NCBI RefSeq assembly: GCF_000026545.1
Contig: NC_011601.1
DNA from: Escherichia coli O127:H6 str. E2348/69
GTDB taxonomy: Bacteria; Pseudomonadota; Gammaproteobacteria; Enterobacterales; Enterobacteriaceae
Length of the DNA: 64,000 nt
Reading direction: 5' to 3' (one strand)
Shown: positions 6,396-8,097 of the stretch, piece after piece
How the letters are laid out: each line of letters starts with the position of its first letter
How positions within the stretch are numbered: the first letter of the stretch is position 1
Position numbers: made by a program

Positions 6396-8097
6396 ATGAA
6401 CAGTGTGCATTTTGGCAATAAATATGAAACCAACTGTCATGTCGGTTTTTTTAAAGGCCGAAGGTGGTAAACCTTCGGCCTTAGCTACGTTTCCTCAGTT
6501 ATTCAATAAATTGACGGATCAGTTCTAGCAGCGCGATTAGCGCCTTAAGAACGATGAGAACTTTATCGAGAAAAGTTTTCATCCGTTGCTCCCTTAAGGG
6601 AGAAAGACAATCACAGCTTACCCTTACGTTGCCTGTAACTATGATTTTCTTCATGTGCTAGATGAGGACTGCCTCTCTCCAAATTAGAGCACCAGAATCA
6701 GCACCACCTGTATCCTGACCAGGACTTAAAAGTACTTTTCCGCACTGCGGTAATCCCTTGAGGCAGTATCACTACTAGCGTCGGGATTGTATCGCCAACA
6801 TAGCTGTTGTGTAAGTTCACAGAGATATTGCAATTGCCTCCGGATAAGTAAGGGGAGATTGCACTATGCAAATGCAGCATCTGATGGTTGGCTATCCTAA
6901 GTACTACCAAACGGCCGATTATGCGTTGAGGCTTTCAGTGATGGCTGATATAGCAACAATGAGAATGAAGGCTCTGCACTTCTGGGATAAACACGGTATT
7001 TCTGCAGCTTCTGAAGCCTTTGGCGTGTCCTGCCGCACGCTTTACTGGTGGCGTCAGTTACTGAACAAGGAAGGACCTGAGGGGCTAATCCCGCACAGTA
7101 AGGCACCTCTGGTGCGACGAAAAAAACACTGGCATCCCGATGTGCTGAAAGAGATTCGACGCCTCAGGACAGAGCTGCCGAACCTCGGTAAAGAGCAGAT
7201 TTTTGTTCGCCTGAAGCCCTGGTGCGAACAGCGCTATCTGGCCTGTCCGAGTGTTTCCACCATCGGCAGAATGATCGCTGCCGCACATGATAAAATGCGG
7301 ATGATACCTGTGCGTCTGGGATCGCGGGGGAAGGCACTGCTTGTCAAAAAGCGGTCTGCCAAACCCCGCAGGCCAAAGCACTACCGCCCGGTAAAGACAG
7401 GTGAGCTCATTGGGATGGACGCCATTGAGCTCAGAATGGGCGAACTGCGTCGCTATGTCATCACCATGATCGACGAATGCAGCAATTACGCGCTGGCGCT
7501 GGCTGTGCCGTCACTCAACAGTGATATCGTCAATCACTTCTTCAGCCGCGCAGCCCGGTTGTTCCCGGTCGGTATCAGCCAGATAATCACAGATAACGGA
7601 AAAGAGTTCCTGGGAAACTTCGACAAAACGCTGCAGGAAGCCGCTATCAAACACCTCTGGACCTATCCCTACACGCCAAAAATGAACGCTATCTGTGAAC
7701 GTTTTAACCGGACGTTAAGAGAGCAGTTTATTGAATTTAATGAGATTTTACTCTTTGAAGATCTGGCGCTATTTAACCAGAAGCTGGCGGAATATCTGGT
7801 GCTGTATAACAGCAAAAGACCCCACAAGGCGCTCGCACTAATGACGCCCGTGGAATATATTTTAAAAGAGAATAAAAATTGCAATATGTGGTGGACCCAT
7901 ACAGCTGTTTGAATATGTAGGCATCCTGACTTATAATTCACTTGCTAGATGAGGACTGTTTCATTTCTGCCCGGAACCACCAAGTCTTGGGCGGAAAAAA
8001 TAAAAAAACCGACTGTCATGTCGGTTTTTTTATATCTGTATTCTGGTGCAACCATTCTGTTCTCACGACAATCGCCGTTTCAGAATACCGCCCATCA

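Follow-up and report, generated by a model that had tools for sequence, protein, structure and literature searches.

Two copies of a 27-nt sequence stand on either side of a toxin gene and a transposase gene between ybbP and mnmH in Escherichia coli O127:H6 str. E2348/69. Most probably they are the terminator hairpins that lie outermost in a type I toxin-antitoxin cassette of the chromosome, one of the dinQ/agrB (dql) kind, into which an insertion sequence (IS) moved later and independently. What was supposed to be a mobile toxin-transposase block would thus be a dinQ-like/agrB-like cassette found in about a quarter of complete E. coli genomes. Cassettes of this kind are already known; the repeat is real yet fairly ordinary, and it does not overturn current understanding. 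The window mentioned below is the whole stretch of DNA that was analysed, 64,000 nucleotides long.

The left copy, hp1 (AAACCAACTGTCATGTCGGTTTTTTTA), lies at 6427-6453 and the right copy, hp2 (AAACCGACTGTCATGTCGGTTTTTTTA), at 8006-8032, both given on the plus strand and 1579 bp apart from start to start. As originally predicted, the two are identical at 26 of 27 positions, and even with up to three mismatches permitted the window holds no other match to the 27-mer. The arms of the hairpin are self-complementary, so orientation has to be read from the asymmetric loop TGTCAT. This loop is the same in hp1 and hp2, and the repeat is therefore direct. The DinQ-like open reading frame (6499-6582, minus strand) and the transposase gene (6866-7912, plus strand) were both located between the copies, where they had been reported.

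A repeat search stretches the pair to 40 nt at 83% identity (6414-6453 and 7993-8032), and the 13 nt added are A/T-rich. When the left flanks of hp1 and hp2 were aligned from their right ends and compared with shuffles, no significant likeness was seen (in the best case 5% of shuffles did equally well, and most cases were far worse). These alignments rule out a repeat longer than 27 nt. They also rule out that hp1 is merely a truncated second agr gene, since its left flank has no significant similarity to agr. Judged by sequence, the true repeat unit is the 27-nt hairpin with its T-run.

From left to right, the region consists of ybbP, REP elements, hp1, a GC-rich hairpin, a leftward toxin gene with a long 5' UTR, back-to-back promoters, a rightward Agr-like small RNA (sRNA), hp2, and the leftward mnmH. 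The genes ybbP and mnmH are convergent. The individual features are:

6411-8081, no strand: block between ybbP and mnmH that is polymorphic for presence and absence; made up of a cassette (about 575 bp when the IS is not counted) and the inserted IS.
6427-6453, no strand: hp1, the left hairpin, AAACCAAC-TGTCAT-GTCGGTTT and then a T-run; it lies beyond the toxin's own terminator and faces ybbP.
6454-6482, minus strand: GC-rich hairpin, AAGGCCGAAGG-TGGTAAA-CCTTCGGCCTT; the proximal 3' stem-loop of the toxin mRNA, which folds in prediction.
6499-6582, minus strand: DinQ-like toxin reading frame of 27 aa, MKTFLDKVLIVLKALIALLELIRQFIE; matches the NCBIfam family toxin_DinQ.
6657-6680, minus strand: putative antisense target in the 5' UTR of the toxin mRNA; left copy of a 22-nt direct repeat (6650-6671 and 7937-7958).
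6786-6791, minus strand: candidate -10 element of the toxin promoter, TACAAT; from a promoter scan, a consensus match only.
6803-6807, no strand: left copy of the IS target-site duplication, GCTGT; from comparison with the IS-less allele (L001) and with other copies of the IS.
6808-7903, plus strand: IS481-family insertion sequence, 1096 bp, TGTGTAAG...CCCATACA; from Pfam, NCBIfam and copies elsewhere.
7904-7908, no strand: right copy of the target-site duplication, GCTGT; from the same comparisons.
7909-7937, plus strand: predicted promoter of the Agr-like sRNA, TTGAAT, a 17-nt spacer and TATAAT; 10 of 12 positions match the consensus in the promoter scan.
7945-8033, plus strand: AgrB-family antisense sRNA, the putative antitoxin; Rfam RF02891, without RefSeq annotation.
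8006-8032 (full stem 8000-8033), no strand: hp2, the right hairpin, predicted intrinsic terminator of the Agr-like sRNA; its opposite strand, facing mnmH, is also terminator-like.
8034-8081, no strand: conserved 3' flank of the agr unit (ATATCTGTATTC...), which reaches the stop region of mnmH.

The limits of the block can be placed by comparing alleles. Empty alleles of the CFT073 type fuse GTGCA(C) to AGAAT, and the IS-less allele occupies the interval. The proposal that the region is a discrete acquired or rearranged block thus holds in the sense of a block whose presence varies among strains, but its limits, 6411 and 8081, lie outside the repeats.

Evidence for the toxin comes from profile searches. 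The 27-aa peptide matches NCBIfam NF041472 (toxin_DinQ) with 40.9 bits against a cutoff of 30, and the DqlB profile gives 24.5 bits for the same peptide, under its cutoff of 35. It therefore scores as a DinQ and not as a DqlB. The peptide shares 15 of 23 core residues with K-12 DinQ, and its ATG is preceded by AGGGAG. RefSeq annotates dinQ here as a longer reading frame of 51 aa, extending to 6654. The GC-rich hairpin downstream of the toxin aligns with, and is homologous to, the terminator hairpin of K-12 dinQ (AAGGGCTAAGAG...CTCTTAGCCCTT), which adjoins gor; the hairpin is also found at the toxin 3' end in plasmid dql cassettes.

The sRNA matches the Rfam AgrB model over its full length (model positions 1-84) with 53.6 bits, the gathering score being 40, and its predicted fold has -34.6 kcal/mol (z -5.65). 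The -10 region of its promoter is kept in a more distant outgroup (L015). The two copies of the 22-nt repeat, 91% identical, supply the pairing between the sRNA and the toxin 5' UTR, which is perfect over 14 nt and, if G.U pairs and one mismatch are allowed, spans about 23 nt. The predicted duplex between the first 40 nt of the sRNA and the 5' UTR has -50.8 kcal/mol, compared with -25.8 +/- 3.4 for shuffles. The 5' end of the sRNA would thus pair with the toxin 5' UTR as in dinQ/agrB, and on these features of the sequence the two genes are expected to act as toxin and antitoxin. Other Rfam models also hit the hairpins (STnc370, OrzO-P, RNAI and others), but none reaches its threshold, and the generic terminator accounts for these hits.

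The locus to which the cassette can best be compared is dinQ-agrAB, a type I toxin-antitoxin locus in the gor-arsR intergenic region of E. coli K-12 (Weel-Sneve et al. 2013, PMC3567139). A global alignment shows that cassette and K-12 locus are collinear from the toxin terminator up to and including agrA, and for another 12-15 nt. In both loci the toxin is a hydrophobic peptide of 27 aa with the core DK..IVL.ALIALLELIR, its mRNA has a long 5' UTR and its gene a GC-rich terminator, and a divergent sRNA, about 85-90 nt long, is antisense to the UTR at its 5' end. The stem of the K-12 agr terminator (AAAAACCGAC/GTCGGTTTTTTT) and its 3' flank are also similar to those found here.

There are differences as well. 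K-12 has a tandem pair, agrA and agrB, both of which terminate in AAAAAACCGAC-GCAAA-GTCGGTTTTTTT, whereas the cassette here has a single agr gene with the loop TGTCAT. In K-12 no agr-type hairpin is found 3' of dinQ, whereas the cassette has one there, hp1. The site is also different, ybbP-mnmH. Finally, the K-12 dinQ locus has a canonical LexA box, CTG-N10-CAG (at L006:783), and the cassette has none; it contains only a version with one mismatch, CTG-N10-TAG, at 7905-7920. Damage-inducible regulation as in dinQ proper is therefore doubtful here.

Related cassettes occur more widely. The dql family, for which Kristiansen et al. 2016 (PMC5066626) give 14 sequences, is found on chromosomes and plasmids of Enterobacteriaceae; its genes have a conserved 5' UTR, and their promoters are of the sigma-70 type and their terminators Rho-independent. 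The DqlB-agrB pair of pOXA-48 is a validated addiction module in which the agrB antitoxin base-pairs with the 5' UTR; expression assays have covered both the toxicity of the peptide and its rescue by the sRNA (PMC12365149). Plasmid dql cassettes share with the present one everything from the GC hairpin through the UTR, together with an agr terminator of the same design, and variants of the hairpin found at hp2 form the 3' end of plasmid agr genes. On the toxin side the plasmid cassettes have no further agr hairpin. A literature search found no relevant paper that links dinQ with ybbP, and the term dqlA gave unrelated matches only.

The similarity continues beyond the hairpin. Anchored by position, the first 12 nt of the 3' flank agree at 10 of 12 sites with the outgroup, at 9 of 12 with K-12 agrA, and at 8 of 12 with agr of an IncI1 plasmid; two other plasmid flanks reach 6 of 12 only, which is not significant. 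In the outgroup the whole flank (8034-8081) can be aligned by eye.

The two hairpins differ in strength. The full stem of hp2 is a perfect 14 bp, with predicted energies of -17.5 kcal/mol on the plus strand (z -6.8) and -16.9 kcal/mol on the minus strand (z -7.6), and it aligns with the terminator stem of the AgrB model. The weaker hp1 carries the single substitution, which makes an A.C mismatch in plus-strand RNA and a G.U pair in minus-strand RNA. A terminator scan that uses only consensus and folding calls hp2 on both strands and hp1 on the minus strand only. These predictions suggest that both hairpins terminate transcription, hp1 probably on the minus strand. For hp2, an A-run before the stem and a T-run after it make the hairpin terminator-like on both strands. 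It could therefore halt transcripts from mnmH as well as being the Rho-independent terminator of the Agr-like sRNA.

Across every cassette examined hp2 is invariant, whereas hp1 differs among strains and lineages. Two of the three lineage-specific substitutions in hp1 remain paired (as G.U) in toxin-sense RNA only, and one breaks a pair on the minus strand. In hp1 and the GC-rich hairpin all changes were one-sided (G.U); no pair showed compensation, and each of 500 shuffles did equally well. With three substitutions, no double-sided compensation and no statistical significance, this pattern is suggestive at most of hp1 acting on the toxin-sense (minus) strand.

Taken as a paralogue of the agr terminator at the opposite end of the cassette, hp1 would most likely serve as a back-up 3' hairpin and terminator for the toxin mRNA, and as a weak stop for read-through from ybbP. 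The back-up role is proposed because the toxin's own GC hairpin is trailed by only three U's.

Intrinsic terminators are compositionally constrained, so two of them may come to look alike. By convergence on an A-run, GC stem and T-run, hp1 and hp2 could be independent terminators whose likeness has no historical meaning; indeed, 22 nt of the hairpin recur without a mismatch after a tRNA-Leu gene in L013, a low-GC MAG that is unrelated. This is extremely improbable for the pair, however, given an identity of 26/27 that includes all six loop bases, while homologous agr terminators have loops such as GCAAA, GCGAA, ATTCACTTT and CCTCACCA. Moreover, no match to the 27-mer arose in 100 dinucleotide-preserving shuffles of the window. 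The common loop, different from that of K-12 agrA and agrB, marks the two copies as paralogous. Two independent terminators would also be expected if all E. coli carried both copies at equal spacing, which is not what the genomes show.

How hp1 arose can be explained in another way that is compatible with the cassette reading. It may be the last remnant of an upstream copy of the cassette or of agr, left by a tandem duplication that was joined in the T-run and then mostly deleted. K-12 carries its agr unit, terminator included, as a tandem duplication of 231 bp, and hp1 and hp2 share a TGTCAT loop that other family members do not have. In addition, the toxin GC hairpin of plasmids is preceded by TTTTTATTAAAGG, which can be aligned with the T-run of hp1 plus AAAGG and makes a join within the T-run plausible. 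We regard this origin as possible but doubtful. It calls for a duplication followed by a separate deletion that stopped exactly at the hairpin, while the sequence left of hp1 has no significant similarity to the body of agr and no sampled genome holds a tandem array of cassettes.

Direct repeats of 20-30 nt around an accessory block are typical of attL and attR, and the ybbP-mnmH gap is a hot spot, with an rhsD island there in K-12. The repeats might accordingly be att-like core sites of a decayed integrative element, with the toxin-antitoxin cassette as surviving cargo. Against this, the repeat is the agr terminator itself, and none of the approximately 25 cassettes examined has an integrase gene, or any other gene of a mobile element, in its 575-bp block. 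The exact 51-aa reading frame also had this one context in all 10 places listed, out of 7945 blocks of the collection that contain it. An att origin is very unlikely on these grounds.

The transposase belongs to a separate element. Its reading frame has no stop codon within the IS. It scores over the Pfam cutoffs for rve and rve_3, is named an IS481 family transposase by PGAP, and reaches 221.6 bits with the NCBIfam IS481 model, slightly below the cutoff of 224. In common with the IS481 family, the element has a DDE (rve) transposase that includes an N-terminal HTH; it also has TGT...ACA termini and a short target duplication. It is unrelated to the 27-nt repeat, transposes as a unit, and is present in many copies in some E. 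coli genomes, with matches at up to 38 places. Copies at other loci are 99.8% identical, have the same ends, and are flanked by their own 5-bp duplications (AGCGC, AGCTC). The homology seems to continue 10 nt further to the left in other copies, but this reflects a shared target preference (CAT/AGC..) and is not IS sequence.

The hairpins do not abut the IS, lying about 355 bp and about 100 bp from its ends. Its junction with the ybbP-mnmH cassette was found in 5 of 5426 genomes, all of them E2348/69/O127:H6. Inclusion of the transposase in the repeat-delimited segment, as first proposed, is ruled out by this distribution, by the IS-less alleles and by the GCTGT duplication. The IS would instead have entered the divergent promoter region recently and independently, in the E2348/69/O127:H6 lineage only. 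In E2348/69 it sits exactly between the toxin -10 and the antitoxin -35, so that the -35 position of the toxin promoter now falls within the IS end (TACACA / CTTACA). The insertion could shift the balance between toxin and antitoxin.

The cassette was surveyed in 5426 complete E. coli genomes, counting matches with at least 80% coverage. It is present in about 1315 of them (about 24%), nearly always without the IS, and the hairpins are then 478 bp apart. Outside E. coli, the full cassette is found in Escherichia sp. E1V33 and in a lineage (L035/L040) whose mnmH is about 92% identical to that of E. coli. The empty sites of CFT073, IMT5155 and MS1718 have zero copies of the hairpin. At the same site an orphan agr is present in the outgroup, which is about 83% identical. 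Salmonella and Citrobacter were considered as outgroups and rejected because the site is not comparable: there mnmH is followed by a methionine-transporter-like operon, not by ybbP.

A solo hairpin with nothing in between is found in one divergent Escherichia lineage (L012, L020-L023). Its left flank, CTTTGGCAACAATCTG, together with the G-arm, is identical to hp1 of L035/L040, and its right flank is of the hp2/AgrB type. The single-copy site that the original prediction sought therefore exists in this lineage, but such an allele is absent from the 5426 complete E. coli genomes.

Such an allele, with exactly the left flank of hp1 and the right flank of hp2, could be the ancestral state. A resident bidirectional terminator between ybbP and mnmH would then have been hit by an insertion carrying the toxin, with or without the transposase, that duplicated a target of at least 27 nt. 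A circular copy integrating by recombination at the shared hairpin would also give flanking direct repeats. Several observations make this history improbable. The hairpin stem and the next 12 nt are the conserved 3' end of agr in K-12 agrA and agrB, in plasmid agr and in the outgroup, which indicates that they arrived with the cassette; the agr-type right flank of the solo hairpin likewise indicates that its right side is derived from the cassette and is not resident DNA. The more distant outgroup already has agr at the site, and E. coli sites that are fully empty lack the hairpin. About 1,310 genomes carry the cassette without the IS, which is bounded by a 5-bp duplication of its own. The earlier suggestion of an insertion that duplicated a resident terminator conflicts both with the identity of the hairpin and with the CFT073-type sites.

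The solo hairpin is best read as the deletion scar of recombination between hp1 and hp2, not as a target that preceded insertion. This reading follows from the combination of an hp1-type left flank with an AgrB-type right flank, from the orphan agr in the distant outgroup, and from the full cassette in a third lineage. Its direction presumes that L015 is a true outgroup with an orthologous agr, within a sample of few lineages: E. coli, Escherichia sp. E1V33, L035/L040, the solo-hairpin lineage and L015 itself. As direct repeats, hp1 and hp2 are able to recombine, and in the divergent lineage such an event would have removed the cassette and left one hairpin.

Deletion between short direct repeats, by RecA-dependent recombination or replication slippage, likewise keeps one copy, as does the solo allele, from which the 478-bp interval is gone; here the process is read from comparative data only. 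Recombination between terminator copies, also raised in the original prediction, is thus the best explanation for the solo allele.

It is conceivable, if unlikely, that the bidirectional terminator, in its two copies, has a function in the cassette. It would insulate the toxin and antitoxin genes from read-through out of ybbP and mnmH, with hp1 as a second 3' hairpin on the toxin-mRNA strand, and it would provide a built-in substrate for excision; once the cassette is lost, a single working terminator would remain. If true, solo agr-type hairpins elsewhere, such as the one after tRNA-Leu in the unrelated MAG, could be footprints of lost type I cassettes.

The alleles at this one site include intact, IS-hit, toxin-deleted, orphan-antitoxin, solo-hairpin and empty forms, and replacement by the rhsD island. 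They offer a compact natural example of the decay of a type I cassette, and suggest that terminator hairpins can act as recombination points.

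The 27-nt sequences AAACCAACTGTCATGTCGGTTTTTTTA at 6427-6453 (hp1, the left hairpin copy) and AAACCGACTGTCATGTCGGTTTTTTTA at 8006-8032 (hp2, the right copy) are identical at 26 positions. Their arms are palindromic, and the repeat is called direct because both copies have the same asymmetric loop, TGTCAT. With up to three mismatches allowed, no further match occurs in the whole 64-kb window, itself 100% identical to E. coli E2348/69, and 100 shuffles of the window gave none; the direct terminator-hairpin repeat of the original prediction is thus upheld. A 40-nt extension was rejected, the added part being A/T-rich and its similarity not significant. 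The right copy forms a perfect hairpin with a 14-bp stem, terminator-like on both strands (folding, terminator scan). For the weaker left copy, the scan reports a terminator on the minus strand alone.

Features between ybbP and mnmH in the window
ybbP: ends at 6281, plus strand; REP elements next
hp1: 6427-6453
GC-rich hairpin: 6454-6482
DinQ-like ORF, 27 aa: 6499-6582, minus strand; NCBIfam DinQ, 40.9 bits (cutoff 30)
Toxin 5' UTR: between the DinQ-like ORF and the IS481-family element
IS481-family element: 6808-7903
Strong candidate promoter, TTGAAT-17-TATAAT: 7909-7937; promoter scan
RNA gene: 7945-8033; Rfam AgrB, full model, 53.6 bits (gathering score 40)
mnmH: stop codon at 8095, minus strand

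The cassette consists of the DinQ-like toxin gene and the AgrB-like sRNA gene. At its start, the sRNA carries ~23 nt antisense to window positions 6657-6680, within the toxin UTR, with a duplex energy of -50.8 kcal/mol versus -25.8 +/- 3.4 for shuffles. Without the IS, the block and the K-12 dinQ locus are collinear, in an alignment that starts at the dinQ terminator, runs through dinQ, the UTR and agrA, and ends 12-15 nt past agrA. By this alignment the cassette is, as judged from sequence, a paralogue of dinQ-agrAB, a type I toxin-antitoxin system, and a member of the 'dql' family, which PMC5066626 describes and PMC12365149 validates on pOXA-48.

RefSeq annotates the toxin as dinQ and leaves the sRNA without annotation. 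The canonical LexA box CTG-N10-CAG occurs nowhere in the cassette, so the name 'damage-inducible' may be unsuited to the ybbP-mnmH paralogue. The sequence CTGTTTGAATATGTAG (7905-7920), which overlaps the sRNA -35, is LexA-box-like with one mismatch (CTG-N10-TAG).

On alignment to the Rfam AgrB model, hp2 falls on the terminator stem. In K-12, AAAAAACCGAC-GCAAA-GTCGGTTTTTTT closes agrA and agrB alike, and the agr genes of plasmids have variants of this hairpin at their ends, whereas K-12 dinQ has the GC-rich hairpin alone at its 3' end. In a position-anchored comparison, the 12 nt past the T-run agree at 10/12 with an outgroup locus (L015), 9/12 with K-12 agrA and 8/12 with an IncI1 plasmid agr; two further plasmid agr flanks reach 6/12, which is not significant. 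The family hairpin and the similar flanks indicate that hp2 and its right flank were brought in by the cassette as an agr 3' end, which speaks against the long target duplication originally proposed. The other copy, hp1, is an additional agr terminator peculiar to the ybbP-mnmH locus and shares its loop with hp2.

A 22-nt sequence matching the hairpin exactly, loop TGTCAT included, lies 3' of tRNA-Leu(CAA) in L013 (3433-3573; CALJMY010000168.1, 33% G+C), an unrelated MAG of low G+C labelled 'Enterobacterales'. The next 12 nt resemble the agr 3' flank at 9/12 (manual count). This hairpin could be chance, convergence or a footprint.

The cassette is present in 1315 of 5426 complete E. coli genomes (at least 80% coverage, high identity), with the hairpins 478 bp apart. 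The IS junction is found in only five, all E2348/69 or O127:H6 relatives. The element is 1096 bp long, has the ends TGTGTAAG and CCCATACA, and is bordered by a 5-bp duplication, GCTGT (6803-6807 and 7904-7908); at other loci, copies with 99.8% identity to it are bordered by other 5-bp duplications. The transposase insertion is therefore an event separate from the repeat pair, and not part of a repeat-bounded block as first suggested.

The IS lies exactly between the candidate toxin -10 (TACAAT, 6791-6786) and the sRNA -35. By promoter scan, the native toxin -35 region has been swapped for IS-end sequence nearer consensus. In the IS-less allele, one 6-bp stretch is the sRNA -35 (TTGAAT, 7909-7914) on one strand and the toxin -35 position on the other; the IS parts the two and offers TACACA or CTTACA as a better -35 for TACAAT (6786-6815, minus strand). 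E2348/69 may have a hybrid toxin promoter at the IS end. The transposase ORF (6866-7912) has no stop inside the IS, which ends at 7903; its TGA lies in flanking DNA (7910-7912), so its C-terminus is set by the insertion site. For an IS copy in locus L043, the annotated CDS runs 51 nt beyond the IS end.

The two hairpins differ in conservation. In every cassette compared, hp2 is invariant. In hp1, E. coli and Escherichia sp. E1V33 have G to A in the left arm, the metagenomic loci L035/L040 have T to C in the right arm and a broken T-run, and one strain has a further A to G. In minus-strand (toxin-sense) RNA alone, the two old substitutions allow a G.U pair; in plus-strand RNA they give an A.C mismatch. 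Folding energies on the minus strand are about -8.5 kcal/mol in E. coli and -8.2 kcal/mol in L035/L040; on the plus strand E. coli has -6.3 kcal/mol and L035/L040 no hairpin. One variant of the GC hairpin, the known toxin terminator, behaves likewise, and only UUU follows its stem. Because the substitutions pair in minus-strand RNA only, this small sample points to a distal 3' hairpin for the toxin mRNA as the main role in which hp1 is retained; the few substitutions compared include no double-sided covariation. With convergent gene pairs at both cassette borders, a bidirectional terminator at either end would also protect the toxin/antitoxin balance against transcription running in from the neighbours.

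Alleles at ybbP-mnmH
Full cassette: E. coli, Escherichia sp. E1V33 (~95% identity in flanking genes), metagenomic L035/L040 (~92%)
Cassette with IS: the window
Cassette minus 108 bp, toxin start codon lost: L005, L037, L041
Solo hairpin: L012, L020-L023, a lineage ~91-93% identical
Orphan agr gene right after the ybbP stop codon: outgroup L015, ~83% identical
Hairpin-less, GTGCAC joined straight to AGAAT: CFT073, IMT5155, MS1718
rhsD island: K-12

The block is polymorphic across strains, in keeping with its prediction as a discrete unit, and the gap is a hot spot of insertion and replacement. Rough shares from evenly spaced sampling of the E. coli match list are ~25% cassette, ~10% CFT073-type, ~52% K-12-type and ~12% other.

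The solo-hairpin allele reads ...GCGCAC-TTTGGCAACAATCTG-AAACCGACTGTCATGTCGGTTTTTTT-ATATCTGTATTCTG...GTTTC-AGAAT, with a left flank as in hp1 and a right flank as in hp2. A single-copy allele of the kind sought as an empty site thus exists in L012 and L020-L023, but in none of the 5426 complete E. coli genomes. It is best read as the outcome of a deletion between hp1 and hp2, not an unoccupied target, because agr was already at the site in L015 (same -10 region and right flank, other loop), the right flank is an agr-family 3' flank, the left flank and G-arm match hp1 of L035/L040, a lineage with the cassette, at every base, and two of three deep Escherichia lineages sampled have both hairpins. 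Recombination between terminator copies, also proposed originally, is its likely source. The CFT073-type alleles are probably secondary deletions, with less certainty.

As for hp1, it may be what is left of an earlier tandem duplication, of the cassette or of agr, the join falling inside the T-run. Such an origin is in line with the agrA/agrB tandem of K-12 and with the TTTTTATTAAAGG flank seen in plasmid cassettes; however, no agr-like sequence was found left of hp1, and no genome sampled has a tandem array.

The 108-bp deletion (L005:700-720; L037, L041), of which several examples occur in E. coli genomes and in metagenome contigs, lies between two near-repeats, GATGAGAACT in the coding region of the toxin and GATGAGGACT at the target site of the sRNA. 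The start codon and SD of the toxin are lost, and both hairpins and the sRNA gene are kept; the toxin is therefore inactivated and the antitoxin kept.

In L015 (1222-1404, Logan SRR31919996), whose ybbP and mnmH share only ~83% identity with those of E. coli, the ybbP stop TGA overlaps the -35 position of the agr-like sRNA gene; a toxin gene is absent, and the terminator has ATTCACTTT as its loop. In K-12 (L007, 521800-531500) a 7.3-kb rhsD-ybbC-ylbH-ybbD-ylbI-ylbG island fills the gap, with no cassette traces at either junction.

The solo-hairpin lineage has purK directly upstream of mnmH and lacks the allS/allantoin region. One metagenome contig (L016) has this purK-mnmH arrangement together with a cassette identical to that of E. 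coli and an mnmH of just 80% overall identity; the contig is a recombinant or an artefact of chimeric assembly. In another (L037, OJLB01004473.1), a REP element links the cassette to what we take, by its C-terminal peptide, to be a gyrB 3' end; this join most likely reflects chimeric assembly at the repeat.

REP/BIME elements 3' of ybbP (6290-6400) number zero in IMT5155, two in CFT073 and the window, and about four in MS1718 (L002-L004). Rfam ES036 (CssrF) matches one of them (6319-6361; 40.3, gathering score 37.6), and naRNA4 matches the region below threshold; both matches look REP-derived.
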